DNA of 24,000 nt from Candidatus Copromorpha sp. (GCA_040768865.1 JAXGMD010000001.1:1225117-1249116), one strand, 5' to 3'. Positions 3,391 through 21,655 are shown, numbered from the stretch's first letter. The notes: a model not told the origin generated them from the sequence alone. Numbers and translations: made by a program.

Positions 3391-3444
3391 ACACTTTATA
3401 TAGTGGATTATAGTGTTGCTAAGGCATATATGTAGTGGTATAAT
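3391..3444 (+). promoter_or_regulatory. nrdJ promoter with NrdR-box-like sites
   Basis: The -35 is TTGCTA (3416-3421), followed by a 17-bp spacer and an extended -10 TGgTATAAT (3436-3444). Box 1, ACACTTTATATAGTGG (3391-3406), matches the published NrdR consensus acaCwAtATaTwGtgt at 14 of 16 positions. A weaker second box, GGCATATATGTAGTGG (3423-3438), starts 32 bp downstream and overlaps the -10. Confidence 0.5.
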
Positions 3445-3518
3445 AACAACAATCAAGACAAAGAAACAGATGTGATAACAACGAAATCAATGATAAAACA
3501 AGAATAGAAGGAGGAGTT

Positions 3519-5807: not shown

Positions 5808-6087
5808 AGAGAGCTCATTATCACCACATGAGTAGAAAAAAATCGGCTCTATGCCAAATTTTGGGATGGAGCCATAATTCATGTTGCTCCAGTTTCAATC
5901 AAAGGTAACAGGAGGCATTGTAGTACTAATGAAGTCCATCAAGAACTATCTCATTGGAATCTAATACACCCGAACTCAAAGCGTATGACGGACAGCATAT
6001 GCTTATTTGTTGTGGTGAATTTTTTCCGGATGAGAGAGCAGACTTTGCAGACCTTTAATTGCGTCTAATAAAGTTTTGGTTAACAAG

Positions 6088-6118
6088 CCTCACTCTGGAA
6101 AAGGAGTGGGGTTTTTTA
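6088..6118 (+). terminator. Intrinsic terminator (about 280 nt after the nrdJ stop)
   Basis: CCTCACTC (6088-6095) pairs with GAGTGGGG (6104-6111), including one G.U pair. A TTTTTT run follows. Confidence 0.7.
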
Positions 6119-6269
6119 TTTTGTGGAGGATTATGTTATGAGTACATATACAGGATATACAAGAGCAAGGGCTGAGGCCAATGCGAATTTCCAAGCGTGA
6201 GTGGCTCAGAGAACTGTTTTACGGACAGAAGATATAGTAGAATGTAACAGAAAGAGATGGAGGAAAACA

Positions 6270-7361: not shown

Positions 7362-7399
7362 GTGATAGATAAACAAAAGTGAAGAAATTTAAAGTGAGA

Positions 7400-7458
7400 T
7401 TGAAGTAATTTTGAAGTTTACATTGAAGTGAGATTGAAGTATAATTGAAGCACTTCAA
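7400..7458 (+). promoter_or_regulatory. Promoter embedded in a phased TTGAAG hexamer array
   Basis: The -35 is TTTACA (7417-7422), followed by a 17-bp spacer and a -10 TATAAT (7440-7445). TTGAAG occurs at 7400, 7411, 7423, 7434 and 7445. The inverted copy CTTCAA at 7453-7458 forms the palindrome TTGAAGcaCTTCAA. AGTGAGATTGAAGTA is a perfect 15-bp direct repeat at 7393 and 7427. Confidence 0.55.
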
Positions 7459-7478
7459 AGTAAAACAGGAGGGTGTTT

Positions 7479-8921
7479 ATGTATCTGGAAGAAATAATTG
7501 GTGATGTACAATTGGAGAGCAGCAAGTTTGAGAGTAAAGAAATTTTGAATCGTGATAATGTTGTAGGATGGCTTAAAACAGTTGCGGGATTTGCCAATGC
7601 ATCGGGTGGTGAATTATATTTGGGCGTTAAGGATAAGACAAATAAATTGGTTGGCTTTGATAGACGAGATGCTGACAATGAACGCAATTACTTCAATAAT
7701 CAAGTAAATGAACATCTGACTCCAAGACCTCAAATGGATATTTCGTTTTTACCATACAAAGTTAGGGATAATGAGCGGTTCATCATAAAAATCAGTATTC
7801 CGGAATCAGTGGTTAAACCAGTAATTCTGAAATACAAAAGTATACCTTCTATATATATGAGAAGAGATGGCTTTACAAATGGAGCTACATATGAAGAAAT
7901 TGTTGAAATGAGTATTAAGAGCAAGAATACACAATATGATATTTTGGTTTCTGATGCTAAATATGAAAAAAGTAAGATATCCAAACTCCATTCATTTTAT
8001 AAAGAACATAATTATGGTGAAGAATTAAAGGAGAAATTTTTGCGTTCTATAGGCTTTGTAAACGAAGATGGATATTTACTGAATGGTGCTGTCTTGTTCC
8101 TGGACGATTACGATGGAAAGAAAACTGAAGTACAATGTTCTGTTTTTTCTGGCTTTAATAAAGGGAGTGAAAGAATAGTAACAGTTAATCGTTTTAATGG
8201 GAATATTATCGAAACAATTGAGTACATCATGGGATTTGTGAACCAGAGAATGAATCGTTCAATGATTAAAAAAATGGATAAAAGAATAAACATCGATGCA
8301 TATCCACAGCGTGCTCTATTTGAAGGTGTGATAAATGCGGTTGCACATAGAGATTATTATTTAGATGGAACCCAGATTCAGGTTGATATGTATAAGGACA
8401 GACTCGAAATTTCTTCGCCCGGTGGATTTTATAGAGGTGAAAGATTCGGTAAAACATATGATTTGTCAGGAGTTATTTCGAAACGAAGAAATGAATTAAT
8501 TTCAAATGTGCTTGTAGGGTGTAATGTTATGGAAGCCGCAGGTACCGGTTTTGATAAGATAATGGAGGAGTACGCAGAAGCAGATCAACCTCACAAACCG
8601 TATATTTATTCTTCATCGGATCATTTCACTTTGGTACTTCCGGATTTGACATACGAAAATGGCGTTAAAGATGAGCGATTAGCAGCCATTTCTTTTGTGC
8701 CTGCTTCAAATAGTACAGAACATGATGAGAAAGTTTTGGCGTTTTGCTATCATCAAGCACACAAAGCGTCAGAAATAGCACAATTCCTCGGTCTTAAAGA
8801 TTCTACATATTTTAGAAACAAAGTGTTAAATAATCTTGTGGAACAGGAGTATTTGTTGAAAAGTAAAGGATTAAGAGCATGGTATTATAGGACAAACTCC
8901 GATTCAGTACAACAACAATGA
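7479..8921 (+). CDS. AlbA_2 (Schlafen-like) + HATPase_c_4 + C-terminal wHTH protein, the family usually annotated as a putative ATP-dependent DNA-binding regulator
   Basis: The N-terminal ESSKFESKE...VVGWLKTVAGFANASGGELYLGVKD is the AlbA_2 signature. RALFEGVINAVAHRDYYLDGTQIQVDMYKDRLEISSPGG is the HATPase_c_4 signature. The C-terminal ASEIAQFLGLKDSTYFRNKVLNNLVEQEYL is wHTH-like. ATG 7479 lies 6 nt after the AGGAGGG RBS. The track start at 7473 is a GTG inside that RBS. Confidence 0.85.
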   Translation: MYLEEIIGDVQLESSKFESKEILNRDNVVGWLKTVAGFANASGGELYLGVKDKTNKLVGFDRRDADNERNYFNNQVNEHLTPRPQMDISFLPYKVRDNERFIIKISIPESVVKPVILKYKSIPSIYMRRDGFTNGATYEEIVEMSIKSKNTQYDILVSDAKYEKSKISKLHSFYKEHNYGEELKEKFLRSIGFVNEDGYLLNGAVLFLDDYDGKKTEVQCSVFSGFNKGSERIVTVNRFNGNIIETIEYIMGFVNQRMNRSMIKKMDKRINIDAYPQRALFEGVINAVAHRDYYLDGTQIQVDMYKDRLEISSPGGFYRGERFGKTYDLSGVISKRRNELISNVLVGCNVMEAAGTGFDKIMEEYAEADQPHKPYIYSSSDHFTLVLPDLTYENGVKDERLAAISFVPASNSTEHDEKVLAFCYHQAHKASEIAQFLGLKDSTYFRNKVLNNLVEQEYLLKSKGLRAWYYRTNSDSVQQQ

Positions 8922-8974
8922 GGAGTTGGTCAGTGGCAGTTGTCTGCAAACTTGTTTAAATGGAAAGAAACTCA

Positions 8975-9013
8975 TTGACCTTTGTCCCTAATAATGTATA
9001 ATAATAGGGACAA
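8975..9013 (+). promoter_or_regulatory. abiE promoter with an operator-like inverted repeat
   Basis: The -35 is TTGACC (8975-8980), followed by a 16-bp spacer and a -10 TATAAT (8997-9002). A perfect 9-bp inverted repeat, TTGTCCCTA (8982-8990) and TAGGGACAA (9005-9013), brackets the -10. Confidence 0.6.
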
Positions 9014-9026
9014 GGGAGATGGTGAA

Positions 9027-9638
9027 ATGAACACAAACATAAGCGAAATGATGAATAAAATAGAAGCAAGTCCTGAAGGCACTGCGTTTATTATTTCTGA
9101 TTTTACAGATTCAATAGGATATGAAACTGCCAAAAAGACATTGGCACGCCTAGAAAAAAAGGGCGTGTTGAGGCGAGTGCTGCGAGGCGTATACGACAAG
9201 CCGGCATATAGTAACCTTCTCCAAGAAGTGGCGGCACCAGATCCGGAACAGATAGCAGAGGCTCTAGCCAGAAGCTATAATTGGACGATAGCACCCAGTG
9301 GAAATACAGCACTTAACTTGTTAGGGCTATCTACGCAAGTTCCTGCCAACTGGGTATTTATAAGCAGTGGTCCATATAAGAAATATGAATTCGGAAGTGT
9401 AAAACTTGAGTTTTTGCACCGCGCTGATAAAACCATAGCCGGGATGTCGCAAACTACAGCAATGGTCATTGAAGCCCTCAAGGCCATAGGACGTGAAAAT
9501 GTTACTGAAGAGCATATAAAGAGGCTCAAGCGGCGTTTGCCAGCAGAGGCAAAAGAGTTGTTGATTGAGGAAGGCAGACACACTTCCCATTGGATTTATG
9601 ACCGGTTCAAAGAGATTTGCAAAGAGGAGGAAAAGTAA
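9027..9638 (+). CDS. abiEi: AbiEi-like (DUF6088-type) type IV TA antitoxin / transcriptional repressor
   Basis: TLARLEKKGVLRRVLRGVYDKPAYS is the wHTH region. APSGNTALNLLGLSTQVPA matches the AbiEi/DUF6088 family as I recall it. The start was moved to ATG 9027, which sits behind a GGGAGA RBS. Confidence 0.8.
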   Translation: MNTNISEMMNKIEASPEGTAFIISDFTDSIGYETAKKTLARLEKKGVLRRVLRGVYDKPAYSNLLQEVAAPDPEQIAEALARSYNWTIAPSGNTALNLLGLSTQVPANWVFISSGPYKKYEFGSVKLEFLHRADKTIAGMSQTTAMVIEALKAIGRENVTEEHIKRLKRRLPAEAKELLIEEGRHTSHWIYDRFKEICKEEEK

Positions 9639-10458
9639 ATGTATGATATTGCAAAGCTGCCTTCTGAAGAACGAATGATATTGTTTCGAAATACGGCTGA
9701 AAAAGCTGGCCGTAACGAGGCAGTCATAGAAAAGGACTTTTGGGTTTGCATAACACTGGATTATTTATTTCATAGATGAATCACGAAAGAGGCTTTTTGA
9801 TTTTCTTCAGAATAAGTTTATGCCGACTTTCAAAGACGGTATGAGCGAAATTATAGGCACGAATGCCGATGTTTTCGTTGCTGAAAATGATGATGGCACT
9901 ATATGCTTTAACTATCCCGGCAGCTTTCATAGCGATGCACTGCAACGTGTTATTCGTTTAGAGATTGGAGCACTGGCAGCATGGACTCCAACTCAAATTG
10001 CCACTGTTAAACCGGATGTCGCGACCTACTATCCAAATATTTTTTCACAGGCAGATACAAATATTCTTACGACTACGGCTGAAAGAACCTTTTGGGAAAA
10101 AGCAACGATACTGCATCAGGAAGCATTCAGGCCTGAAAAATCTACCGTACCGATGAGGTATTCCAGGCACTATTATGACGTGCACTGCATGGTCAAAACC
10201 ACAGTTAAGGAACAAGCTATGGCTCAGCCTAAATTATTGGAGGCAGTTGCGAAATTTAAGCAAAAATTCTATCCCCGCAAATGGGCGAGGTATGAATTGG
10301 CAAGAGTTGGTTCATTAAAACTGTTGCCTGCGGAGCATAGCGTAGAATTATTGCGTGAGGACTATGCAAAAATGCGTTCAATGATTTATGGAAAATATCC
10401 CTCATTTGATGAAATACTTGCCGGTATTACTGTATTGGAAAAAGAAATAAACAAGTAA
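9639..10458 (+). pseudogene. abiEii: AbiEii/AbiGii-family nucleotidyltransferase toxin, disrupted (N-terminal 46-aa stub plus an out-of-frame C-terminal part)
   Basis: ATG 9639 directly abuts the abiEi stop. It encodes MYDIAKLPSEERMILFRNTAEKAGRNEAVIEKDFWVCITLDYLFHR, a typical AbiEii N-terminus, and then hits TGA at 9777-9779. The family resumes in the +1 frame, open from 9754, as ...LFDFLQNKFMPTFKDG...IRLEIGA...ERTFWEKATILH... up to 10458. The GGTxLxK and SEDID-type catalytic motifs that normally lie between these two parts are absent in both frames. Confidence 0.8.
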
Positions 10459-10501
10459 CAAACAAGTAAAATAATAAGTGAAAGTCTGGTCAGAGATGGT
10501 A

Positions 10502-10586
10502 GCAGCAGGACAATATTGCAGGTAACTTTCTTTTATGAAAAGATTGTTAAATAGTGCCTGCAAATTGTGGACAACTGCTGCTTTTT
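10502..10586 (+). terminator. Long imperfect hairpin plus T-run after the abiE remnant
   Basis: GCAGCAG (10502-10508) pairs with CTGCTGC (10575-10581). TTGCAGG (10516-10522) pairs with CCTGCAA (10557-10563). TTTTT follows. Confidence 0.45.
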
Positions 10587-10589
10587 ATA

Positions 10590-10618
10590 TTGCAAAAAAG
10601 CTCGCTTGAATATATAAT
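10590..10618 (+). promoter_or_regulatory. hipBA promoter candidate
   Basis: The -35 is TTGCAA (10590-10595), followed by a 17-bp spacer and a -10 TATAAT (10613-10618). Confidence 0.5.
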
Positions 10619-10677
10619 ACAGTTAATATATTAGCTATAATTTGCTAAAATATCACATAAAGGATAATATATTAATC

Positions 10678-10965
10678 ATGAACACGAATGTTTTGAGTTT
10701 CAAAACCCCATATGAAGTCTCTATGGAAATATCAGAGAAGGCAAAACTCAGGCGGAAGCAAATGAAGCTTACGCAGGCGCAGCTTGCCGAAAAGTCGGGG
10801 GTGAGTTTGGGATCTTTGAAGCGTTTTGAAAGAACCGGCAAAGTCTCTCTTTCGTCTTTATTGAATATAGCTATGGCACTGGGATGCCTGAAAGATTTTG
10901 AAGGTGTATTCAAGAAACCGGAATACACAACCATAGAGGAAATTCTAAATGATAAAAACAGATAG
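10678..10965 (+). CDS. hipB: XRE-family HTH antitoxin (HipB-like)
   Basis: LTQAQLAEKSGVSLGSLKRFERTGKVSLSSLLNIAMAL is an HTH_3 motif. The 3' end overlaps hipA by 17 nt. The start is uncertain: ATG 10678 is preferred over TTG 10642. Confidence 0.75.
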   Translation: MNTNVLSFKTPYEVSMEISEKAKLRRKQMKLTQAQLAEKSGVSLGSLKRFERTGKVSLSSLLNIAMALGCLKDFEGVFKKPEYTTIEEILNDKNR

Positions 10966-12067
10966 AATAGATGTTTTTATAAATGAAAGGCATGTGGGTA
11001 CTCTGGCAGAAACACGGCACAGAGCTGCTTTTCAATATAGTGACGAATGGCTTGAAAACGAATTCAGCATAAGTCCTTTTTCTCTGCCTCTTGAAAGAAG
11101 GCTTTTCATTCCGGAATACAACCCGTTTGAAGGTGTATTTGGAGTCTTTGCGGATACACTTCCTGACGGATGGGGCAGATTGATTGTGGACAGATACATC
11201 AGACAGAAGTTTGGGGTGAATGCCTCCGACATCGGAGGATTTCAAAGGCTGACACTTGTGTCAGATTCCGGACTGGGTGCGCTTAACTATAAGCCTGCAA
11301 TGGATTTTAGCGGTGAAGATTTTGCAGGAAATTACGACGAGTTGGCCGAGGAGTGCGGCAGGCTGCTTAGAGAAGAAAACATCGATAATCTGGATGAACT
11401 CTTTCAGCTTGGCGGATCTACGGGCGGCGCAAGACCGAAAATTCATACAAAAGTAAATGGAGAGGAATGGATTATTAAATTCCCGGCAACCTATGACAGT
11501 CAAAGCATCGGACTGCAGGAATATGAATACAGCCTTTGCGCAAAGGCGTGCGGTATAGAAATGAGTGAAACTCGACTTTTTCCATCAGAAATATGCGCCG
11601 GATATTTCGGTACGAAGCGTTTCGACAGAAAGAGTGATGGCAGAAGAGTTCATATGATTTCCGCAAGCGGGCTTCTGGAGACTTCGCACAGGTACCCGAA
11701 TCTGGATTATAATGAGCTCATGAAGCTGACGCTGCTCCTTACCCGTGACATGCAGGAAGTGAAGAAAATGTACGACCGCATGTGCTTCAATGTATATGCG
11801 CATAATAGAGATGACCATTCCAAGAATTTCTCTTTTCTGTACGACGAGGAAGAAATGCGATGGATAGTGTCTCCTGCCTACGACCTGACATACAGCAGCT
11901 CACAGGGTGGAGAGCACGCAACCACAATTAGCGGGGAAGGGAAAAAACCGGGAAGAGAACACATTCTCCAGGTTGCCAAGATAGCGGGGATAGATGCATC
12001 GTATGCAAAATCAAGGGCGAGAGAGATTGAAGAAGTTGTGAGGGTAATGTTGGGGGAGTACTTGTGA
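10949..12067 (+). CDS. hipA: HipA-family type II toxin Ser/Thr kinase (372 aa)
   Basis: The N-terminal coupling domain is IDVFINERHVGTLA...LPDGWG. The GGSTGGARPK loop, the catalytic HNRDDHSKNFSF and SPAYDLTYS are present. A GAGGA RBS lies 8 nt upstream. Confidence 0.9.
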   Translation: MIKTDRIDVFINERHVGTLAETRHRAAFQYSDEWLENEFSISPFSLPLERRLFIPEYNPFEGVFGVFADTLPDGWGRLIVDRYIRQKFGVNASDIGGFQRLTLVSDSGLGALNYKPAMDFSGEDFAGNYDELAEECGRLLREENIDNLDELFQLGGSTGGARPKIHTKVNGEEWIIKFPATYDSQSIGLQEYEYSLCAKACGIEMSETRLFPSEICAGYFGTKRFDRKSDGRRVHMISASGLLETSHRYPNLDYNELMKLTLLLTRDMQEVKKMYDRMCFNVYAHNRDDHSKNFSFLYDEEEMRWIVSPAYDLTYSSSQGGEHATTISGEGKKPGREHILQVAKIAGIDASYAKSRAREIEEVVRVMLGEYL

Positions 12068-12272: not shown

Positions 12273-12434
12273 ATGGATAATATAATTGATATTTTGAACG
12301 ACGACAAAGACTTGCAAGCATTAAAAAAGCAGTATGAAGAAAAATACATGAAAAATGCACCACCCTTTAATACTGATGAATATAACGGTATTGATGATTA
12401 CAAAGAACAATTAAAGAAATTAGTGGAAGGCTAA
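12273..12434 (+). CDS. Small acidic hypothetical protein (53 aa), below the track's length cutoff
   Basis: A GGAAGGA RBS (12261-12267) lies 5 nt before the ATG. The protein is MDNIIDILNDDKDLQALKKQYEEKYMKNAPPFNTDEYNGIDDYKEQLKKLVEG*. Its 3' end carries the GGAAGG RBS for the next gene, and its stop is 5 nt before TTG 12440. Confidence 0.45.
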   Translation: MDNIIDILNDDKDLQALKKQYEEKYMKNAPPFNTDEYNGIDDYKEQLKKLVEG

Positions 12435-12439
12435 GCAGT

Positions 12440-14410
12440 TTGATTATAAACATTCAAGACGATATTTTAAAACTTAATAGTATAAAAATTCTTGATAAGC
12501 TTTTGGTTGATAAAACAACGCGAAAAAACATCATGTGGGCTACGGATGCTTATGACGATGCAGGGGAATTGTATGAAAGAAATAAAGAGATAACAATTCA
12601 AGCTGTTACAGGACATAATGCCGGAGTTATCAAAACACGAGCAAGAAAGGCGTTAGAGAGTCAGGAAAAGAGAACGCGACAACATGCGGAGATTTTCACG
12701 CCACTATGGCTTTGCAATTTGATGAATAATCAAACTGATGAAGAATGGTTCGGGAGAAAAGAAGTTTTCAACAAGGATGGAGAGCCAACGGAAAAAGTAA
12801 AATTCCCGGAAGGGAAAACCTGGCAAAAATACATTAAATCAAGGCGGATGGAAATAACTTGTGGAGAGGCTCCTTTTCTCGTTAGCAGATATGATGTTGA
12901 AACAGGCGAAATGATACCTGTTAGTAAACGAATAGGAATACTCGATCGCAAATTGCGGACTGTTAGCGAAAACACCGAAACTGAAGCTGAGTGGATGAAA
13001 TGGACTATAAGAGCTTTTCAAGCGACATATGGCTATGAGTTTCAGGGAGACAATGTCCTTATTGCACGGGTAAATATGCTTATGACATTTGAGGAACACT
13101 TAGAGGATAGATGGGGTAGAAAGCCATCCTACAGGGAATACGAAAAGTTTGCAAATATCATTGCTTGGAACATCTGGCAAATGGATGGTCTAACCGGGAC
13201 AGTTCCGTATTGCAAGGCTAAAGAGGAAGATTTACAGACAAATATGTTCGATAAGATAGGCATGAACTTTGAACCAGAGGAAGAGGATGTACAGCCGCCG
13301 TGCAGGATATATGACTGGTTAGGCAAAAACAGAAGTATAGAATTTATATCGCTTAGGAACAAGAGGGAAAAAATGAAATTTGATTTTATTATCGGGAATC
13401 CACCGTATCAAGAAGAGCAGGAAGGGGACAATAAAACATTTGCTCCGCCTATTTATCACAAGTTTTTGGAAGAAGCATATAAACTATCTGATTGTGTTGA
13501 AATGGTTCATCCTGCCAGATTTTTATTCAATGCGGGAAGTACTCCAAAGGAATGGAACCGCAAGATACTATCAGATCCACATTTAAAGGTGCTGTTTTAT
13601 GAACAAGATAGCAGTAAAGTTTTCCTAAATACTGATATTAAAGGTGGGGTAGCGATAACATATCGGGATAAAAAGCATAAGAATAAACCAATAGGAACTT
13701 TTACAGCGTTTGAAGAATTAAACTCACTATTAAATAAGGTTTATGGAAGTGACGGTTTTGACAGCTTTAGTAAGATTGTGTTTACACGCACAGCATATCG
13801 TTTGACAGATATCATGCATAACGAACATCCTGAAGCATTAAGCCAATTAAGTAAGGGACATGCGTATGATATGTCTACAAATATATTCGAATTGCTGCCT
13901 CAAATTTTTTATGATGAGAAGCCAGATGATGAGACTTATAGTTATATTAAAATTTTGGGACGGGAAAACAATCAGAGAACTTACAAATGGATTCGAAGAG
14001 ATTATGTAAATGATGTTACCAATTTAGAAAAATGGAAAATTATTTTACCAAAATCTAATGGTTCCGGTGCACTTGGGGAGGTATTAACAACACCCCTAAT
14101 CGGGGAACCCCTAATCGGGTCAACAGAATCCTTTATAAGCATTGGTGATTTTGAAACAGAAGAAGAGGTAGTTGCATGTTTGAAATATGTTAAATCGAAG
14201 TTTGCGAGATGCATGTTAGGCATACTTAAGGTTACACAGGACAATCCACCGGAAAAGTGGAAATATATCCCAATGCAGGACTTCACAGAGACTTCTGATA
14301 TTGACTGGTCAAAGTCAATATCAGAAGTTGACGAGCAAATATATAAGAAATATGGGCTAAGCAATCAAGAAATAGAGTTTATTGAATCGCATGTCAAGGA
14401 GATGGAATAA
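12440..14410 (+). CDS. Eco57I-like gamma-class N6-adenine DNA methyltransferase with a C-terminal target-recognition-like domain (656 aa)
   Basis: Motif X-like AEIFTPLWLCNLMNN comes first. Motif I-like RMEITCGEAPFL follows, then motif IV FDFIIGNPPYQ (NPPY at 13397-13408). The C-terminal ...KSKFARCMLGILKVTQ...IDEQIYKKYGLSNQEIEFIESHVKEM is typical of Eco57I/TaqI-type TRD tails. The TTG start is 9 nt after GGAAGG. The alternative ATG (MWATDAY) would remove 31 aa. Confidence 0.88.
   Translation: MIINIQDDILKLNSIKILDKLLVDKTTRKNIMWATDAYDDAGELYERNKEITIQAVTGHNAGVIKTRARKALESQEKRTRQHAEIFTPLWLCNLMNNQTDEEWFGRKEVFNKDGEPTEKVKFPEGKTWQKYIKSRRMEITCGEAPFLVSRYDVETGEMIPVSKRIGILDRKLRTVSENTETEAEWMKWTIRAFQATYGYEFQGDNVLIARVNMLMTFEEHLEDRWGRKPSYREYEKFANIIAWNIWQMDGLTGTVPYCKAKEEDLQTNMFDKIGMNFEPEEEDVQPPCRIYDWLGKNRSIEFISLRNKREKMKFDFIIGNPPYQEEQEGDNKTFAPPIYHKFLEEAYKLSDCVEMVHPARFLFNAGSTPKEWNRKILSDPHLKVLFYEQDSSKVFLNTDIKGGVAITYRDKKHKNKPIGTFTAFEELNSLLNKVYGSDGFDSFSKIVFTRTAYRLTDIMHNEHPEALSQLSKGHAYDMSTNIFELLPQIFYDEKPDDETYSYIKILGRENNQRTYKWIRRDYVNDVTNLEKWKIILPKSNGSGALGEVLTTPLIGEPLIGSTESFISIGDFETEEEVVACLKYVKSKFARCMLGILKVTQDNPPEKWKYIPMQDFTETSDIDWSKSISEVDEQIYKKYGLSNQEIEFIESHVKEME
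14093..14122 (+). repeat. In-frame 15-bp tandem duplication inside the methyltransferase TRD
   Basis: The sequence reads CCCCTAATCGGGgaa CCCCTAATCGGGtca, encoding PLIGE-PLIGS. Confidence 0.85.
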
Positions 14411-17400
14411 TGGCTACACCGAAGATTAAGTCTTTTACCTCTGTGGTTCCTATGATTTATGCCTATAATACTCCCGGGGTTTTGTACCATGAAGGATGGA
14501 CGAAAATAGGGTATACAGAAAAACAATCGGTTGCAGATCGCATCAAGCAACAGACGCACACTGCAGGAATAAAGCCGGTGATTGCATGGCAGGATAACGC
14601 AATATATAAAGACGGATCCGGCGAGTATTTCACTGATTATGAATTTCACGGCTATCTGGAAATTGAGAAAGAGGTGGAACGTGAAAAAGGAACTGAATGG
14701 TTCAAAATTGATGGTGCTAATTCAAAACAATATTTTGATTGCTTTGCAAGTCGTAGCTTTGATGAGATCCCGGAAGAAGAAAGATATTCATACACATTGC
14801 GCGATGAGCAGGCTGAAGCCGTTGCTATGACAAAAGAGTACTTTGAAAATGGTGGCGAGGAGTTTCTTTGGAATGCTAAACCGCGTTTTGGAAAGACTTT
14901 AACATCATATGATTTGATTAGAGAGATGGGATTTAAAAAGGTACTTATCGTTACTAACAGACCCAGCATCTCGAATTCATGGGCGGATGATTTTCACAAA
15001 TTCATAGGATGGAGAGGCGAACTTGCATTTGTATCTGAAACTGACGCGCTGAAAGACAAAAGAGGTGTTTTGAGTCGTGAAGAATATGTAAATCGTACCG
15101 TAGCCCTAGATTCCGAAAAAGCTCCGGGTATGGTTGCATTTGAATCTCTGCAAGGGCTTAAGGGATCCGTATATTTCGGGGGACAAATTGATAAGCTGGA
15201 ATGGATTCATGGAATCAATGATGGATTTGATCTTTTGATTATTGATGAGGCGCAAGAAGGCGTTGACACTATGCGTACAGAACGCGCCTTTAAATCCATA
15301 AAGAGGAAGCATACGCTTTATCTTTCAGGAACCCCGTTTAAAGCCCTTGCCAGTGAGCAGTTTTCTAAAGAACAGATTTTTAACTGGTCCTATGCTGATG
15401 AGCAAGAGACAAAAGCAACATGGAAGAACGAAGATTACAATCCATATGAAATACTTCCGCGACTGGAAATGTATACATATCAACTTTCTGCAATGATTAG
15501 GGAGGAGATAGAGAAAGGGATAGACCTTTCAGAAGATGGTAGTACAGACTATGCATTTGATTTGAACGAGTTCTTTTCAACTAATGAGAGCGGTAAGTTT
15601 ATATATGAGGAAGATGTCAAGAAATTTCTGCATGCACTTTGCTCTCAAGAAAAATATCCGTATTCTACACCGGAATTGCGGCAAGAGTTGTCACATACTC
15701 TTTGGTTATTAAATCGTGTAGCCAGTGCAAAAGCATTAGCCAAATTGTTAAAAGATGATCCGGTCTTCAGGGAATATGAGGTTGTTCTTGCAGCCGGTGA
15801 TGGTCGTCTAGATGATAATGAAGCGACAGAAGCATCATTTGATAAAGTTAAAGAGGCCATAGCAAATAATGAAAAGACAATTACTCTCAGCGTCGGCCAG
15901 CTGACAGTTGGAGTTACCATACCTGAATGGAGTGGTGTTTTGATGCTATGCAATCTGAAGAGCCCATCATCGTACATGCAGGCAGCTTTTCGTGCACAAA
16001 ACCCGTGTATTGTTACTAAAGATGGAAAAAGATATCGCAAGGAAACCGCATATGTATTTGATTTCGACCCGGCGAGAACACTTATCATCTTCGATGAATT
16101 TGCAAACAATCTGTCAAAAGACACAGTGGATGGTCGAGGAACAAAAGGTGATAGAGAGCAAAACATTCGTAGATTATTGAATTTCTTCCCTGTTCTTGGA
16201 GAAGATGATGAGGGAACAATGATTGAACTGGATGCAGCTCAGGTTCTTTCAATTCCAAGACGAATTAAGAGCCAAGAGGTTGTGCGACGTGGATTTATGT
16301 CAAACTTCCTATTCCAGAATATCAGCAATGTATTTGGAGCTCCTGCAGTTGTTCGTGAAATTGTGGAGAAGCTTACACCTGCACATGAAGAAACGAAAAG
16401 GACAGATAAAGAAAAGCTGAAGGACCTAGAAGGTGTTTCTGTAAATGAAGATGGGGAAGTTGAGATTCCGGTGGAAATAGTAATTGGTAAGACCCGAGAG
16501 CTTTTTGGCGAAAAAATATATGAGACTCTCGAATCTGACTTGAATGGAACGCTGAATGGTATTAACAAGAATTCCGAATTTGAGGGGATTGAGAGCGGTA
16601 TAGAGGAAGTCATAGAGACGGTAAAGAATAGCCTTAAGGGAAGTGTTATAAAACCGGCATCCGATGAGTACGATCTCAAATCACGTACTCAGCAGAGGAT
16701 TGAAAAACAGCTAGACAGAGAGATTGAAACTACCTTTATGAAAATAAAGGATGACTATAAGCAACAGGCATCCATAGCAAAGGCAGAGCTCGAACGAAAA
16801 CGGAAAGAGGCGGAATCAGAGCAGGATGTTAAACAAGCCGATGCAGAGTATGAGATGTGTATGGATGATGCCATGAAAGGGCTTATGGAGGCTGCAAAAG
16901 AAACAATAAAGAAGACCATTGATGAAAAACCAAAAGAAGTTATTGAGAAAATAGAAAAGATTCGTGCGGAAGCGGAGAAGAAAACAATAGAGGATACCAT
17001 ACGAGATCACCTTAGAGGTTTTTCAAGAACTATTCCTAGCTTCATCATGGCTTATGGAGATGGAAATATCACCTTAGCGAACTTTGATGAATATACAGAG
17101 GATGATGTTTTTCAAGCGGTTACCGGCATTTCTGAAGAAGATTTCAGATTTTTAAGAGACGGTGGCAATTATGAGAATCCGGAAACAGGTGAGACAGAGT
17201 ACTTTGATGGAAAACTATTTGATGAAGTTGTGTTTAACGATTCAGTTGAAGAGTTCTGGAACAAGAAAATCTCATTAGCTGACTATTTTGACGAAACGCA
17301 TGAAGAAGATATTTTTGATTATATTCCGCCACAGAAAACTAACCAAATATTTACGCCAAGATGGGTAGTTGCTACAATGGTAGATCAATTGGAAGAGAAC

Positions 17401-17733
17401 AATCCCGGCTGTTTTGATGATCCAACAAATACCTTTGCCGACCTGTATATGAAGTCCGGTCTTTATATTACAGAGATTGTAAAGCGGCTATATAGAAGCG
17501 ATGAAATTAAGAAGGTCTATCCTGATAACGAGGAAAGGATTCGTCATATTCTTAGGAATCAGGTGTATGGCATGGCTCCAACCAGAATCATTTATCTGAT
17601 TGCGACTAATTATATTCTGGGATTTGATGAAAGCTTGAAAGATGAGGTAATGAACTTTATTCAATGTGATGCTGCTGAAGCATCGAAAAATGGGAAGCTG
17701 GGGGAAATGGTGGATAAGTTTTTTGATATTTAG
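14410..17733 (+). CDS. Multidomain protein (1107 aa): N-terminal T5orf172/GIY-YIG-like domain, SF2 (ResIII/DEAD-like) helicase, Glu/Lys coiled-coil, and a C-terminal degenerate methyltransferase-like region
   Basis: The ATG overlaps the upstream stop (TAATG, 14408-14412), and an AAGGAG RBS lies 9 nt upstream. Residues 15-100 (IYAYNTPG...TKIGYTEKQSVADRIKQQ...YEFHGYL...GTEWFKI) fit the T5orf172 pattern. Walker A is PRFGKT (GKT at 14890-14898). The DEAQ box is LLIIDEAQEG (15244-15255). Motif III is LYLSGTPF and motif VI-like is MQAAFRAQNP. Residues ~655-875 are E/K-rich. Residues 980 onward read IFTPRWVVATMVDQL...FADLYMKSGLYITEI...VYGMAPTRIIYLIATNYIL, which resembles methyltransferase motifs X and I, but no NPPY follows. 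Confidence 0.88.
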   Translation: MATPKIKSFTSVVPMIYAYNTPGVLYHEGWTKIGYTEKQSVADRIKQQTHTAGIKPVIAWQDNAIYKDGSGEYFTDYEFHGYLEIEKEVEREKGTEWFKIDGANSKQYFDCFASRSFDEIPEEERYSYTLRDEQAEAVAMTKEYFENGGEEFLWNAKPRFGKTLTSYDLIREMGFKKVLIVTNRPSISNSWADDFHKFIGWRGELAFVSETDALKDKRGVLSREEYVNRTVALDSEKAPGMVAFESLQGLKGSVYFGGQIDKLEWIHGINDGFDLLIIDEAQEGVDTMRTERAFKSIKRKHTLYLSGTPFKALASEQFSKEQIFNWSYADEQETKATWKNEDYNPYEILPRLEMYTYQLSAMIREEIEKGIDLSEDGSTDYAFDLNEFFSTNESGKFIYEEDVKKFLHALCSQEKYPYSTPELRQELSHTLWLLNRVASAKALAKLLKDDPVFREYEVVLAAGDGRLDDNEATEASFDKVKEAIANNEKTITLSVGQLTVGVTIPEWSGVLMLCNLKSPSSYMQAAFRAQNPCIVTKDGKRYRKETAYVFDFDPARTLIIFDEFANNLSKDTVDGRGTKGDREQNIRRLLNFFPVLGEDDEGTMIELDAAQVLSIPRRIKSQEVVRRGFMSNFLFQNISNVFGAPAVVREIVEKLTPAHEETKRTDKEKLKDLEGVSVNEDGEVEIPVEIVIGKTRELFGEKIYETLESDLNGTLNGINKNSEFEGIESGIEEVIETVKNSLKGSVIKPASDEYDLKSRTQQRIEKQLDREIETTFMKIKDDYKQQASIAKAELERKRKEAESEQDVKQADAEYEMCMDDAMKGLMEAAKETIKKTIDEKPKEVIEKIEKIRAEAEKKTIEDTIRDHLRGFSRTIPSFIMAYGDGNITLANFDEYTEDDVFQAVTGISEEDFRFLRDGGNYENPETGETEYFDGKLFDEVVFNDSVEEFWNKKISLADYFDETHEEDIFDYIPPQKTNQIFTPRWVVATMVDQLEENNPGCFDDPTNTFADLYMKSGLYITEIVKRLYRSDEIKKVYPDNEERIRHILRNQVYGMAPTRIIYLIATNYILGFDESLKDEVMNFIQCDAAEASKNGKLGEMVDKFFDI

Positions 17734-17747
17734 GACACTGGAGCAAG

Positions 17748-18770
17748 GTGATAAAAATAATGAAAAATGAAAGTACATCAACTAATCATAGACAAGACAA
17801 CTATGTAGATAATCGCATCTGCAACAAAAGCAGTAAAGATGCATTGTTAGGTTTGGCCGTTGCCGATGCATTAGGAGTTCCTGTGGAATTTTCAATAAGA
17901 AAAAGGCTGCAGCAAAATCCGGTTGTTGGAATGCGAGGTTTTGGATCTCATGATGTACCGGCAGGAACATGGTCAGATGACACATCCATGACTATTGCCA
18001 CCATGCAGGCAGTTGCGGATAAAGGTCAAATAGACTATGACGAAATAATGAACAATTTCAGTAAATGGCTCAATGAGGGTGAGTTTACCACCGATGGCAA
18101 AGTATTTGATGTTGGTGGTACATGCCTTCGTGCAGTCATGAAATGGTGCCGAGGTGGTTGCGAGCCAATAGATGCAGGAATGAAAGGTGAACGCAATAAC
18201 GGCAACGGATCTTTGATGCGGTTTTTGCCGGTTCCATTCTATTGTTACTCTAAAGGAATACAAGGCAATGATCTAGTAAAAATCTGCAATGAGATCTCAT
18301 CTCTTACCCACAGTCATGAAATAAGTCGTTTGGGATGCTATATTTACACAATTTTTATGATGGAACTTTTGAGAGGTCATAATCTAAGAGAGGCATATGA
18401 GAATATGCAGAAGGCAGACTATAGCGCTTATTCTGCAGAGAGCATTGGAATATATTCCAGGATATTGAATAATGATATTTCTGTTTTGGCAGAAGAGTCA
18501 ATTGAGTCGGATGGATATGTTGTTTACACATTGGAAGCAGCGCTCTGGTGCCTCCTGAACGGAAAAGATTACAAAAGCACAGCCTTAATGGCAGTAAATC
18601 TTGGTCGAGATACAGATACAGTAGCAGCTGTTGCCGGCTCCATGGCGGGCATTGTCTATGGAAAAGAAAGTATACCGACTGAATGGCTGGAAGTTTTGCT
18701 TAGGAGAGAGTACTTGGAAAATCTTTCAGAAAGATTTGATTGTGCATTAATTCGTACAATTATAGATTAG
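17748..18770 (+). CDS. ADP-ribosylglycohydrolase family protein (DraG/ARH-like)
   Basis: Motifs present are LLGLAVADALGVPVEF, GTWSDDTSMT, NGNGSLMR, THSH, DGYVVYTLEAALWCL and GRDTDTVAAVAGSMAGIVYG (the metal-binding Asp/Thr clusters). The gene starts 14 nt after the helicase stop. The start is ambiguous between GTG 17748 and ATG 17760. Confidence 0.88.
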   Translation: MIKIMKNESTSTNHRQDNYVDNRICNKSSKDALLGLAVADALGVPVEFSIRKRLQQNPVVGMRGFGSHDVPAGTWSDDTSMTIATMQAVADKGQIDYDEIMNNFSKWLNEGEFTTDGKVFDVGGTCLRAVMKWCRGGCEPIDAGMKGERNNGNGSLMRFLPVPFYCYSKGIQGNDLVKICNEISSLTHSHEISRLGCYIYTIFMMELLRGHNLREAYENMQKADYSAYSAESIGIYSRILNNDISVLAEESIESDGYVVYTLEAALWCLLNGKDYKSTALMAVNLGRDTDTVAAVAGSMAGIVYGKESIPTEWLEVLLRREYLENLSERFDCALIRTIID

Positions 18771-18828
18771 ATTATGATATAATCAATCTGCCCCGGATTG
18801 GTGGATCCGAGGCAGATGGTGCTGGTTG

Positions 18829-18918
18829 CTATTTGTGGTAACGACTCAGCCACTTGCAGATATAGTTGGCAATTATACCTGCTACAGTCGAAACTAAAAG
18901 CGCACATAGAATATTCAT
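18829..18918 (-). CDS. Type I toxin candidate: a 29-aa hydrophobic peptide (Fst/Ldr/PepA1-like)
   Basis: It is not in the ORF track because it is too short. The minus strand reads GGAAAGGAGGTGctatATG and then MNILCALLVSTVAGIIANYICKWLSRYHK*, a single TM helix with a basic tail. It resembles S. aureus PepA1 (...SGCAIAFFSYWLSRRNTK) as I recall it. A perfect consensus promoter lies upstream. Confidence 0.65.
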   Translation of the reverse strand: MNILCALLVSTVAGIIANYICKWLSRYHK

Positions 18919-18964
18919 ATAGCACCTCCTTTCCGTTGCCGGTATGGAGATTAGCAACAAACAT

Positions 18965-18993
18965 ATTATAGTGTAAATGGAAATATTTGTCAA
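18965..18993 (-). promoter_or_regulatory. Consensus sigma-A promoter for the toxin mRNA
   Basis: On the minus strand, TTGACA (18993-18988) is followed by a 17-bp spacer and TATAAT (18970-18965). Both hexamers are perfect. The ~40-nt 5' UTR contains the hairpin GTTGC...GCAAC, and its loop ATCTCC could sequester the SD. Confidence 0.7.
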
Positions 18994-19010
18994 TTATTAC
19001 ATAATCACTA

Positions 19011-19038
19011 TTGACTAAATTTATTATGGTGTTATAAT
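19011..19038 (+). promoter_or_regulatory. Promoter for the divergent small RNA
   Basis: The -35 is TTGACT (19011-19016), followed by a 16-bp spacer and an extended -10 TGtTATAAT (19030-19038). It sits back-to-back with the toxin promoter. Confidence 0.6.
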
Positions 19039-19044
19039 GAATAT

Positions 19045-19116
19045 AGGCAAAGCGTACATAGAAACATATGGCACACGAAAACTTCGGAATGGTGGTTCCG
19101 GGGTTTTCTTTTTTGT
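19045..19116 (+). ncRNA. Candidate type I antitoxin sRNA (~65-70 nt), bounded by a promoter and a terminator
   Basis: It starts ~7 nt after the -10 and ends at the intrinsic terminator at 19082-19116. Positions 19049-19062 (AAAGCGTACATAGA) are complementary to toxin codons 3-7, forming a 14-bp duplex with one U.G pair. CATAT at 19065-19069 is complementary to the AUG region. Confidence 0.5.
19082..19116 (+). terminator. Intrinsic terminator
   Basis: CTTCGGAA (19082-19089) pairs with TTCCGGGG (19096-19103), including two G.U pairs. The T-rich tract TTTTCTTTTTTGTTTCTTTT follows. Confidence 0.65.
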
Positions 19117-19148
19117 TTCTTTTATCAACGAACACTTCCGGATTATGG

Positions 19149-19178
19149 TTGAAAAAAGAAAATGGATATAAGTATAAT
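19149..19178 (+). promoter_or_regulatory. fic promoter candidate
   Basis: The -35 is TTGAAA (19149-19154), followed by an 18-bp spacer and a -10 TATAAT (19173-19178). It lies downstream of the terminator at 19082-19116. Confidence 0.4.
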
Positions 19179-19220
19179 ATGTGTAGAGGAAACCAGCAAA
19201 AAGATGCGGAGGGGATAGTC

Positions 19221-20000
19221 GTGAGCAGAATAGAGGATGTGCTCAGGGAATACAAACAACTCGGGATAGATCAGCAGTTGGATTACGATAAATTCTACCT
19301 GTACTCCATTATCACGCATTCAACAGCAATTGAGGGTTCAACGGTAACGGAAATAGAAAATCAGCTTCTTTTTGATGAAGGAATCAGTTCGGGTAAGCCG
19401 ATGCCGGAACAGCTTATGAATCTCGACTTGAAGAAAGCATATGAAAGAGCCTTTGCAGTTGCGGATAACCATGAGGAGATTACAATCGAACTGCTTTGCA
19501 GTTTGTCCGGTATTCTGATGAAGAACACCGGGTCTTTATATAACACAATCGCGGGAACCTTCAGCAGTGCAGATGGGGATTTAAGGCTTTTGAATGTCAG
19601 TGCCGGCCACGGAGGCAAAAGCTATATGGCATGGCAAAAAGTGCCGGGAAGGCTGGAAGAATTCTGTTCCTGGTTGAAAGAGGAGCGGGGAAATCTTAAA
19701 CCCGGAGATATTGAAAGTGCTTACAAGTTAAGTTTTGAAGCACATTACCGTTTGGTAGGTATACATCCTTGGGCGGGTGGAAATGGCAGGATGGCGCGTC
19801 TTGTAATGAATATCATTCAGCGTGAGGCCGGTGTGATTCTATCAATTGTAAAAAAAGAGAGCAGAGCGGAATACATAAAAAGCCTGGCTGATTCACAGGC
19901 TTCGGATAATAACACACCATTTATGAACTTTATGATGGAAAATCATATCCGCAACATAAACGACCAGATACAGGAATATATAGAATCAATCAGAAAATGA
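19221..20000 (+). CDS. Fic/DOC-family protein with an N-terminal inhibitory-helix motif (class II-like)
   Basis: The Fic core motif HPWAGGNGRMAR lies at 19764-19799. The N-terminal STAIEG at 19320-19337 matches the [ST]xxxE[GN] inhibitory motif. The start was moved to GTG 19221, 6 nt after the GGAGGGG RBS. The track start at 19068 lies inside the sRNA/terminator region and has no RBS. Confidence 0.85.
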   Translation: MSRIEDVLREYKQLGIDQQLDYDKFYLYSIITHSTAIEGSTVTEIENQLLFDEGISSGKPMPEQLMNLDLKKAYERAFAVADNHEEITIELLCSLSGILMKNTGSLYNTIAGTFSSADGDLRLLNVSAGHGGKSYMAWQKVPGRLEEFCSWLKEERGNLKPGDIESAYKLSFEAHYRLVGIHPWAGGNGRMARLVMNIIQREAGVILSIVKKESRAEYIKSLADSQASDNNTPFMNFMMENHIRNINDQIQEYIESIRK

Positions 20001-20039
20001 CACTTTAAAATTCAGGCGGGTTTTATTTAACAAAGAGGC

Positions 20040-21655
20040 ATTAGTGTGAAAGAAAATAAAAACAAGCCGTAAGATGGCAATAAAAAACAGGCTATCTAAA
20101 GATAACCGAAAAATCTGTGCAATGAATTAAATTGTTTAGGAGACGAGTAATTCCTCTGAGATGATGCCCTCCTTTTTAAGCAGTTTAATTGCCTGCTTGA
20201 TTGCTTTGGATTTTTGCATTTCCTTAAGTTCGACAGGCATATCGATTTTGTACAAATCGCAAGGGTTCCACATCTCGCCGGTAGACAGCATGTTGAAGAC
20301 GGCGGTGAGAATCATCCTTGCAATAGCAATGATAGCTCGTTTTTTTCCACGGCGTTTCATGATGCGTTCGTATTTGAGTTTGTAGTAAGGAGATTTGTCG
20401 GATTTCACGGCTGCATGAGCAACTTGTACCAATGCAGGTTTGAGATAGACTCCGGCACGTGTAGTCCGAACAGACTTTTTCTTACCGGCAGACTCGTTGT
20501 TACCGGGAGTAAGTCCGGCCCAGCAACATAAACGCTTGGAAGAAGAAAACTGAGACATATCAGTACCAATCTCGGAAATAATAGTTATCGCACTGTTTCT
20601 ATTGATTCCCGGAACGGTACAAAGCAGATTGACAGCATTATCATAAGGTTCAGCCAACGAATCAATTATTGAGTCTATATCAGCAATAGCAGAAGTGATA
20701 TAATCCATATGTGCACGGATGATATGCATGCGATATTTTTGGGGATCAGTCATCTGATAACCCTCGATGGACTCAATGACACTTTCAGACTTATTCTTGA
20801 GTGAACGAAGCAGTCTGGAGGATATTTCTTCGTGGTTGATGGAATTGTCGGACTGTTCAAGAAGGTAATCGATTATAGAGGTGGCTGATTTCCCGAAGAT
20901 ATCGGAAACAACCGAATCCAATGCAACATTACAAACGGTAAGAGCATTTTGAAATCGATTCTTCTCGCTGCTTCTGCAGGAAGTTAATTTATACCGATAC
21001 CTCGTAAACTCTCTGAGAATACGGATAGGTTTGCACGGTATATAGCTTCCGGGCACAAGCCCTAGTCTGAACAAGTCTCCAATCCATTTGGAATCCTTTG
21101 TGTCGTCCTTGTTCCCTTTGACAGCCTTTACCCATTTAGGGTTGGCGATGGTTATGTTAATTTCATCTTCCAAAAGGTTGAACACAGGTATCCAGTATTT
21201 ACCGGTGGATTCCATGCAGATATCACGACAGGAATTGTCCAACAGCCATTTTTTGAACTCAAGAATGGAATTGTTGAAGGTGGAGAAGCGCTTCTTCTGA
21301 TAAGAAGGCTGAACTCCGGAAGTAGTTTTGATGATTGTGGCAACGAGAAAAGATTTGTGAACATCGACACCACAACAAATCTGATAAACAACTTTCATAG
21401 GCAAGCTCCTTTCTAATAAAAATAAAGAAGCCATTGACTGTCTCATCACACAATTTAACAAAGGCGTTAAAACAATTCTTAGTGTACGGATTAGTAATAC
21501 CACTTATTTGTGCTTGAAAGATGGGGCTTACACTGATTATTATGCTGTCTTTAACGAGGAAGTTAATACGACTCACCTCTTCGTGCTTTGTAGTATAGCT
21601 TCTAAAAAGTATTTTATACCAAAGTGAAAGAAGGGTAAGTAGCTTTCACAACTAT
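20040..21655 (-). mobile_element. IS110-family insertion sequence (boundaries approximate)
   Basis: It has a single transposase gene, with ~250 nt of non-coding sequence on its 5' side and ~100 nt on its 3' side. IS110-family elements lack classic terminal inverted repeats, so the ends cannot be fixed by eye. Confidence 0.5.
20136..21398 (-). CDS. IS110-family DEDD transposase/recombinase (420 aa)
   Basis: The N-terminal MKVVYQICCGVDVHK and CMESTGKYW are DEDD_Tnp_IS110 motifs. LCTVPGINRNSAITIISEIG...CCWAGLTPGNNESAGK is the Transposase_20 domain. ATG 21398 sits behind a GAAAGGAG RBS. The track start at 21503 adds 35 unsupported residues. Confidence 0.93.
   Translation of the reverse strand: MKVVYQICCGVDVHKSFLVATIIKTTSGVQPSYQKKRFSTFNNSILEFKKWLLDNSCRDICMESTGKYWIPVFNLLEDEINITIANPKWVKAVKGNKDDTKDSKWIGDLFRLGLVPGSYIPCKPIRILREFTRYRYKLTSCRSSEKNRFQNALTVCNVALDSVVSDIFGKSATSIIDYLLEQSDNSINHEEISSRLLRSLKNKSESVIESIEGYQMTDPQKYRMHIIRAHMDYITSAIADIDSIIDSLAEPYDNAVNLLCTVPGINRNSAITIISEIGTDMSQFSSSKRLCCWAGLTPGNNESAGKKKSVRTTRAGVYLKPALVQVAHAAVKSDKSPYYKLKYERIMKRRGKKRAIIAIARMILTAVFNMLSTGEMWNPCDLYKIDMPVELKEMQKSKAIKQAIKLLKKEGIISEELLVS

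Follow-up and report, generated by a model that had tools for sequence, protein, structure and literature searches.

A duplicated, degenerate methyltransferase half-domain in a candidate ATP-dependent restriction-modification locus of Candidatus Copromorpha sp.

Results

Genes and domains at the locus

The window analysed here, i.e. the whole stretch of 24,000 nt from Candidatus Copromorpha sp. (GCA_040768865.1 JAXGMD010000001.1:1225117-1249116; coordinates are counted from its first letter), contains two adjoining plus-strand genes that we regard as a candidate ATP-dependent restriction-modification (R-M) system. The first gene (12440..14410, +) codes for an Eco57I-family, gamma-class N6-adenine DNA methyltransferase (MTase), as indicated by Pfam (Eco57I, E = 3.5e-20) and PADLOC (MTase_II). 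The second gene (14410-17733, +) has a good Shine-Dalgarno (SD) site, and its ATG overlaps the stop codon of the first (TAATG), which suggests translational coupling. Four names are used for the parts of the system. A is the canonical N-half of the MTase, which binds S-adenosylmethionine (SAM); C is the NPPY half together with the target-recognition domain (TRD); B is the nuclease-motor subunit; and Bn is the degenerate MTase N-half carried by B. In these terms, the upstream gene is A-C and the downstream gene is B.

Counted from TTG 12440, A-C comprises 656 residues, its true start being uncertain. The protein carries IFTPLWLCNLMNN, EIFTP, EITCGEAPF, YGYE and GNPPYQ, and it combines motifs X, I, II and IV with a TRD in one frame, as an Eco57I-family MTase does. 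Module A (12476..13372, +) holds motif X (EIFTP), motif I (EITCGEAPF) and motif II (YGYE); the Glu and Gly of motif I and the Glu of motif II are invariant among 62 A modules. Module C (13373..14410, +) extends from beta4 (FDFIIGNPPYQ) onwards and includes the TRD. Its NPPY motif, located at residues ~319-322 of A-C in the window, is conserved in all 54 C sequences that have this column. The two modules are matched by separate PADLOC MTase_II families, PDLC03390 covering residues 13-308 and PDLC03375 residues 309-655, and module C additionally matches the fused REase_MTase_IIG model in its C-terminal region (positions 965-1359). By eye, we noted that A modules, whether fused or stand-alone, have a short acidic-hydrophobic tail after motif III, (Q)(L/M)SLF(D/E), instances of which occur in the window (12440-13372; …LQTNMFDKIG…) and in the loci L001 (5247-5993), L083 (2704-3396) and L087 (3690-4472). 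This tail could be a docking peptide.

The reading frame of B had been proposed in an original prediction made from this DNA alone. It is present at 14410-17733 (+) and translates into the expected 1107 residues, with the quoted motifs in place (IYAY at residue 16, IFTPRWVV at 980, FADLYMKSG at 1009 and VYGMAPTR at 1052) and no NPPY before the stop. A protein search with B returned at least 8000 homologues; the best 120 listed share ~70% identity with it at 99-100% coverage, and all have a length of ~1100 residues.

The amino-terminal region of B (residues 1-125; 14410..14784, +) is assigned to a T5orf172-type domain of the GIY-YIG clan, a putative nuclease, on account of family-level Pfam matches and invariant residues. 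Taken alone, the window sequence scores 18.2 bits against T5orf172 (PF10544; cut-off 20, E = 3.7e-3) and 19.9 bits against MUG113 (PF13455; cut-off 22.3, E = 1.1e-3). Among 23 aligned, diverse family members, T5orf172 is matched by 21 (E <= 0.01, best 1e-9) and MUG113 by 17. Y17, K32, G34, R44, D76, H80 and E96 are invariant or nearly so in these 23 sequences, as are W97 and F98, and all of them are found in the window. Thereby, the catalytic-type residue set of GIY-YIG domains (the Tyr of 'GIY', the K/Y-I-G element, Arg, His and Glu) is complete. Since the invariant residues form a GIY-YIG-type pattern, the T5orf172/GIY-YIG-like domain proposed for the N-terminus is right at the family level; judged by these sequences, the B proteins as a group appear to be members, with the window copy falling just below the cut-offs. 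A profile of this domain retrieved no GIY-YIG structure from the PDB sequences, and the top match, a fimbrial protein, looks like a chance hit.

Residues 126-640 (14785..16329, +) form a helicase-like ATPase of superfamily 2 (SF2), ResIII type (Pfam ResIII, E = 3.5e-12). Its motifs are intact (Walker A NAKPRFGKT, DEAQEG, SGTPF and QAAFRAQN), and 57 columns are invariant, among them K162 (GKT), D279/E280, SGT 306-308 (G307/T308) and Q524/R528. With the ResIII match and all nucleotide-binding motifs invariant, the SF2 helicase that had been proposed is borne out. By sequence profile, the ATPase appears to be far from any solved motor: only UvrB and XPD were matched in the PDB, around motif I, and nothing connected it with the motors of Type I, III or ISP systems. 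Searches of full-length B and of A-C against the PDB sequences with phmmer gave spurious matches only, and an NCBIfam search yielded nothing useful.

The adjoining stretch (residues 641-863; 16330..16998, +) is rich in Glu (18%) and Lys (13%) and varies in length from 70 to 294 residues among relatives (median 231). It is the least conserved part of B, with 23% identity and no invariant column. The E/K-rich stretch of the original prediction is real, but the coiled coil of ~220 residues proposed for it is not established: only about 30 residues (~774-803) pass a crude heptad test, and the first ~110 residues contain Gly and Pro. A strict coiled coil over residues 641-863 was dismissed on the grounds of this weak heptad evidence and the poor conservation, and we call the region a charged helical linker.

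The C-terminal tail of B

The tail of B consists of a helical, coupler-like subdomain (LRGFSRTIPSFIMAYG...; residues 864-959; 16999..17286, +) and of Bn, the N-half of a gamma-MTase Rossmann fold (residues 960-1107; 17287..17733, +), for which profiles, structure prediction and structure comparison agree. Within Bn, motif X (IFTP) is followed by the order beta1-alpha-beta2-alpha-beta3, and the chain stops before beta4 and NPPY. It ends ~20 residues after a motif III-like Asp; motif IV and the C-terminal half of the fold are absent from it.

Pairwise comparison of the tail with the upstream MTase by BLAST, using the window segments, is only marginal, with E = 0.009 for the motif X stretch and nothing else significant. 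Profiles are more telling. When a tail profile built from split-class sequences only was aligned with the module A profile by hhalign, a probability of 92% (E = 6.4e-7) resulted, with FTP placed on FTP and DLYMKSGLY on EITCGEAPF. Likewise, fused relatives, whose tail is followed in the same chain by the NPPY domain, gave a profile that aligns with DrdV (PDB 7LO5; E = 1.7e-4); a single alignment covers motif X, motif I (DPATGTGTF) and NPPY and extends past the latter. An AlphaFold2 model of residues 864-1107, calculated from a 98-sequence alignment, is of high confidence, with a predicted local distance difference test score (pLDDT) of 94.2 and a predicted template modelling score of 0.88. It shows the helical subdomain and then a helix, beta1, a helix, beta2, a helix and beta3, the strands being residues 146-148, 189-193 and 220-222 in model numbering. 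When this model was compared with the PDB by Foldseek, only gamma-class N6-adenine DNA MTases came out on top, with a probability of 1.00. The best match is LlaBIII, a Type ISP enzyme (4XQK; 243 columns), at a modest E-value of 1.8e-3 and a TM-score of 0.43 on the query; DrdV, CamA, LlaGI, BrxX/PglX and HsdM were also found. The alignments with LlaBIII and LlaGI cover 243-256 columns and include the coupler-like subdomain. Since profiles and structure matches agree where the pairwise comparison is marginal, the models and sequences identify two parts in the tail, the coupler-like subdomain and a gamma-class N6-adenine MTase N-half that is homologous to A. The original prediction had described the tail as such a half-domain, with degenerate SAM motifs and no NPPY, and the Rossmann, MTase-like fold that a structure search should reveal was indeed found. 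Its suggestion of a kinship with Type ISP is likewise backed by LlaBIII as the top structural match and by fused relatives that are collinear with Type ISP enzymes.

Two elements that SAM binding requires, a canonical motif I (D/E-P-x-x-G-x-G-x-F) and the ribose-binding acid of motif II, are missing from Bn. Its motif I reads D-L-Y-M-K-S-G-L-Y, and Lys takes the place of the first Gly in 52 of 53 split-class sequences. Its motif II is G-x-A-P (YGMAP), with Ala in place of the acidic Glu in ~49 of the 53; the acid is also missing from all fused Bn sequences inspected. The FTP of motif X is conserved, and one motif I Gly as well as the motif III-like Asp are kept. Thus, the SAM loop is degenerate as had been claimed, but it has lost only the first of its glycines (K-S-G), and the loss extends to the motif II acid.

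The label 'vestigial' does not suit this domain. With a mean identity of 59% and 11 invariant columns, Bn is the best-conserved domain of B, ahead of the helicase (55%) and the linker (23%); K-S-G is kept across the split, B-C and B-A-C classes described below, the Gln and Pro residues of Bn are invariant too, and the architecture is repeated in thousands of genomes from many phyla. That the tail is a decaying relic without function, or the whole locus a defunct R-M remnant like the dnmA-yeeB-yeeC cluster of Bacillus subtilis, appears highly improbable to us. The incomplete fold, the degenerate SAM motifs, an IS110 transposase in the surrounding island and the missing phenotype of the related DnmA cluster (PMC9973331) would fit such decay. 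Against it stand the conservation of Bn, the catalytic motifs, which in the window are intact in A and C as well as in the ATPase and the nuclease-like domain, and the homologues of B, at least 8000 in number with the best 120 full length, which are spread over many phyla.

An exhaustive search with the tail gave 790 cluster representatives, 86 of which (50%-identity clusters) had a full-length match. The chain stops after Bn in 52 of these 86 and continues for >250 residues in 28, the NPPY half and TRD following directly. The original prediction would have fallen to simple truncation if homologues usually carried an intact MTase at this position. About one third (28/86) do carry the missing parts, but the window strain is not simply truncated, because the split form is in the majority (52/86), the best 120 homologues are full length and the missing half is in every case encoded just upstream of the split form. 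In the fused relatives, moreover, the N-half is equally degenerate, and a gene for a second, canonical N-half is present.

Module arrangements in related loci

We collected 80 related genome loci with a 5-sequence Bn alignment. They span Bacillota, Actinomycetota, Bacteroidota, Planctomycetota, Verrucomicrobiota, Desulfobacterota, Spirochaetota, Pseudomonadota and Melainabacteria, and the order A, C, B on one strand is found in every locus with enough upstream DNA. The modules are distributed over the genes in different ways. The window shares its two-gene form, A-C and B, with about 32 other loci. In about 25 loci, A, C and B are three separate genes, C beginning with 'MKFDF.IGNPPY'; A and C are therefore separate in ~25 of ~57 cases. 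Plasmids of Enterococcus, Lactococcus, Lactiplantibacillus, Bacillus, Paenisporosarcina and Lysinibacillus have A followed by a fused B-C gene, and this order is inverted (B-C, then A) in loci L093 and L095. In Alphaproteobacteria, on plasmids of Sphingopyxis (L088, 2729-7505) and Rhizobium (L089, 2655-7451), the chain is broken at a different point: A (208-215 residues) is followed by a stand-alone Bn-C of 526-538 residues (DPFTKSGVF, GNPPYQ) and by a B of 847-852 residues that ends after the helical subdomain. Finally, P0164, P0219 and P0252 are single B-A-C chains.

Across all these arrangements Bn keeps K-[ST]-G and lacks the motif II acid. Wherever Bn and C share one chain they are directly continuous, like the corresponding halves of Type ISP, DrdV and MmeI enzymes, and the distance from KSG to NPPY is mostly ~100-115 residues, with up to ~150 in a few that carry insertions. 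This continuity, mostly at ordinary motif I-to-IV spacing, leads us to regard C as the structural counterpart of Bn.

According to one alternative, Bn and C would form an active enzyme with non-canonical SAM binding, the fused relatives would be bifunctional and Type ISP-like, and A would be accessory or regulatory. The motif III-like Asp and the motif I glycine retained by Bn are compatible with the idea, as are natural motif I variants known from other MTases. In addition, one B-C locus (L092, ERZ26858472 contig, 3001-7575), whose B-C gene has a strong internal GTG start with an SD energy of -12.0 kcal/mol, has no A nearby. However, Ala-Pro stands in place of the motif II acid in ~49 of 53 split-class sequences and likewise in every fused one inspected, A holds every canonical SAM residue without exception, and an A-type canonical N-half is encoded in essentially all loci, adjoining B-C in 9 of 10. 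We consider an active Bn-C enzyme quite improbable.

Several loci show additional features. The B relative P0131 in L096 (CAVIJC010000035.1, 2239-6384) has ~280 extra residues (~1100-1381) after Bn that lack NPPY and bear a PD-(D/E)xK-like signature (…GDGDF…VWDFKVSK…), with an ordinary A-C gene upstream; in this relative the half-MTase may have acquired an additional nuclease. In L083 (Lactococcus lactis pCV56A, 3398-7756) the B-C protein has an extra region of ~200 residues before the T5orf172-like domain, and its Bn variant reads LEINSKTGLY, again with K-[ST]-G. The A and B-C genes of L001 (Enterococcus faecium pDY28-optrA, 5247-10356) lie a few kb from optrA and erm(A). Similar copies are carried by many Enterococcus plasmids, which account for 33 of the 85 matching plasmid records.

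An internal start for module C

At the A/C junction of the window (13355..13375, +) an SD-like run, AGAGGGA, precedes the in-frame ATG 13373, a candidate start for a free C of 345 residues. All 32 fused A-C genes have an in-frame ATG two codons before FDF.IGNPPY and a G-rich run 6-12 nt upstream of it, and the amino acids encoded around this ATG differ widely among them. The same Met starts stand-alone C genes, e.g. in Treponema ('MKFDFCIGNPPY'), where free C likewise has 345 residues. SD strength was expressed as the pairing energy to the anti-SD sequence, and 1755 other internal ATGs as well as the starts of the B genes served for comparison. The mean energy of the junction ATGs (-9.09 kcal/mol) is close to that of the B starts (-8.93) and far from that of the other internal ATGs (-3.02; Mann-Whitney p = 2.5e-19, a value that overstates the support because the loci are related and not independent).

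All 12 B-C and Bn-C genes whose DNA was available also keep a start-type codon at or near the junction; those with Leu or Val in that place encode it by TTG or GTG. Each of them has an SD except L093 (putative Bacteroidota), which has the junction ATG only and in which the B start lacks an SD as well. A simple rule holds for the loci compared: whenever just one of the two N-halves is joined to C, C has a start to itself. A rough C tree was tried as a means of timing the A-C fusions. It was uninformative, with fused and split A-C states interleaving through at least 17 changes, probably because TRDs recombine.

Proposed mechanism

We regard it as roughly an even proposition that B is the restriction subunit of a compact ATP-dependent R-M system related to Type ISP, and that free C completes Bn in trans. 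Tentative, and somewhat short of even in our judgement, is the further proposal that a single kind of C half, supplied by the internal start, is shared by a SAM-competent A for modification and a SAM-blind Bn for restriction at the same site without methylation. The upstream gene would then yield both the full A-C MTase, for host protection, and the free 345-residue C from ATG 13373. By fold complementation, this C would complete Bn and thereby tether the DNA-reading TRD and the base-flipping NPPY pocket, which accommodates the adenine, to the motor and the nuclease. With one TRD and hence one specificity, B:C would read the same asymmetric site as A-C. Being unable to bind SAM, it could not methylate invading DNA; on unmodified sites it would translocate, driven by ATP, and cut, as Type ISP enzymes do.

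The original prediction had seen the tail as a docking module for the separate MTase. Docking points in the right direction, but the likely partner would be the C half rather than the whole enzyme. Closest to that earlier version is the main rival, in which Bn docks on complete A-C, for instance by imitating half of another MTase protomer in a pseudo-dimer (compare Res-Mod2 of Type III), while B is still the restriction subunit. It is favoured by the B-A-C relatives, where Bn lies beside a complete A-C with no extra C and no internal start, and by the fact that the full-length product in the window is A-C. It leaves unexplained, however, why a start codon and SD occur at the junctions where C has only one N-half, why Bn is continuous with beta4 and NPPY at normal I-to-IV spacing, and why one hidden Markov model alignment to DrdV extends over both halves. 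We judge docking on A-C to be rather unlikely.

Several observations weigh against completion of Bn by a free, shared C. The B-A-C chains (L090, L094) have two N-halves and one C, so that Bn cannot have a C of its own, and in these genes neither a start codon nor an SD was found at the junction. The window SD at ATG 13373 (-6.3 kcal/mol) is among the weaker ones, the dependence among loci noted above applies to the whole comparison of internal starts, and the combination of SD and ATG could be a relic of repeated recent gene fusions. The loss of SAM binding by Bn is inferred from its motifs, and in M.TaqI an Ala can stand in for the first Gly. To our knowledge, nuclease activity of T5orf172 domains is generally unproven. 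In L092, no recognisable A was found within 3 kb on either side, the only such locus. An AlphaFold2 model of a natural Bn-A-C fusion fragment (P0209), made with no alignment, was unusable (pLDDT 31.8). Finally, no restriction phenotype has been found for the related DnmA-YeeB-YeeC cluster of B. subtilis (PMC9973331).

Genomic neighbourhood

In the window, the system sits in a toxin-antitoxin/defence island (6201-12067 and 17748-21503). Upstream lie genes for RtcB (6201-7361), a Schlafen AlbA_2/HATPase_c_4 protein (7473-8921), an AbiEi-like/DUF6088 protein (8982-9638) with AbiEii (9820-10458), and a helix-turn-helix (HTH) protein with HipA (10642-12067); downstream are an ADP-ribosylglycohydrolase (17748-18770), Fic (19068-20000) and the IS110 transposase (20136-21503, -). 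An open reading frame of 53 residues (MDNIIDILNDDKDLQ…; 12273-12434, +) ends 5 nt before the TTG of the MTase gene. Since none of the ~90 related loci contains an equivalent, it is probably not part of the system. The ADP-ribosylglycohydrolase, Fic, HipA and the HTH protein, too, were rejected as components since they are not found beside the system in the ~90 other loci, and comparison of the related loci revealed no conserved neighbour gene beyond A, C and B. Farther upstream, a 663-residue reading frame (3891-5882, -) lies almost wholly inside a ribonucleotide reductase gene (3519-5807, +; Pfam Ribonuc_red_lgC, TSCPD) and is most likely a shadow frame.

The missing neighbours also bear on whether the system is a classical restriction system at all. 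In a methylation-guided defence or exclusion system of the BREX or MANTIS kind, B would be a translocase and effector that does not cut unmodified sites. Annotations of T5orf172 domains include DNA binding besides a nuclease-like character, the tail matches BrxX among other structures, and newer methylation-based systems part the MTase from a helicase-nuclease effector (bioRxiv 10.64898/2026.09.23.753747). On the other hand, there are neither BREX or MANTIS accessory genes nor conserved neighbours, the GIY-YIG catalytic-type residues are invariant, and PADLOC gives B and A-C only R-M models (REase_MTase_IIG, MTase_II). An exclusion system of this type therefore seems distinctly unlikely to us. 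The other PADLOC matches of B (LeoBC, DpdE and ZorA3) are weak and confined to short stretches, and identity with MANTIS/Gao_RL was rejected, as that system has four genes including an AAA+ ATPase.

Discussion

By architecture and structure, the nearest characterised relatives of the system are the Type ISP enzymes LlaGI and LlaBIII (PDB 5FFJ, 4XQK). In these the order is nuclease, SF2 motor, coupler, gamma N6-adenine MTase and TRD; some fused B relatives are single chains in that very order, and B itself has the coupler and gamma-MTase regions after the motor. The differences are nevertheless considerable. The nuclease-like domain of B is of the T5orf172/GIY-YIG type and not Mrr/PD-(D/E)xK, and a charged linker of 70-294 residues is inserted. 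The window system is divided into two genes, the break lying between beta3 and beta4, so that B is without the NPPY half and TRD. The MTase N-half on the motor chain lacks the SAM motifs, whereas a second, canonical N-half is encoded. Moreover, profile searches detected no sequence similarity between the B motor and those of LlaGI and LlaBIII.

By parts list, the nearest relative is the DnmA(YeeA)-YeeB-YeeC cluster, which consists of an MmeI-like MTase, an SF2 helicase and a T5orf172/GIY-YIG protein (PMC9973331). It shares the gamma N6-adenine MTase of the MmeI/Eco57I kind, the helicase and the T5orf172 domain, and it, too, is a conserved operon in defence islands. Compared by description, it differs in that two distinct proteins supply the helicase and the T5orf172 domain, a single protein forms the complete MTase, and no half-MTase is described on the helicase. 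The Type IIL/IIG enzymes DrdV (7LO5), MmeI and Eco57I belong to the same MTase family, as the profile alignment from motif X through motif IV and beyond illustrates, but they have no ATPase motor, a PD-ExK nuclease and a single, intact SAM-binding half. Type III systems (Mod and Res, e.g. EcoP15I) resemble the window in their two-gene operon, with mod preceding res, and in a Res that combines an SF2 ATPase with a nuclease and needs Mod for the target. Type III Res, by contrast, carries its nuclease, of the PD-(D/E)xK type, at the C-terminus and has no MTase half-domain, and Mod is a complete beta-class MTase that acts as a dimer. MTase folds made of two assembling polypeptides are known from the alpha/beta pairs M.AquI and M.EcoHK31I, C5 MTases with one copy of each piece; unlike these, the family described here has two alternative N-halves, one of them cofactor-blind by its motifs, for each C half.

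The genes as such are already catalogued, since PADLOC holds models for the fused form ('REase_MTase_IIG') and for both MTase halves as separate 'MTase_II' families. In the literature, we found no account of the split family, nor of its duplicated half-domain, permuted modules or nested start. The system would be of a known kind, ATP-dependent R-M, and its assembly logic would be new if confirmed.

In Type ISP, Type IIG/IIL and Type III systems, the restriction enzyme itself methylates, and in Type I a separate S subunit is shared. If the proposed mechanism is true, specificity would here be shared by splitting the MTase fold itself, a cofactor-blind copy of one half being placed on the motor, and Rossmann-fold halves could serve as exchangeable docking modules. 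Such fold complementation would solve the matching of restriction and modification specificities as well as phage escape by accidental methylation, and one swap of the TRD would retarget both activities at once. It would also explain the 'half' N-6 methylases and 'truncated' Eco57I annotations beside helicases in thousands of genomes and plasmids of gut and dairy bacteria, and the C gene nested inside A-C would be one that standard gene callers miss. The family is abundant in gut Clostridia and on plasmids of Enterococcus and Lactococcus, including an optrA resistance plasmid, which makes it relevant to the barriers that these bacteria raise against plasmids and phages.

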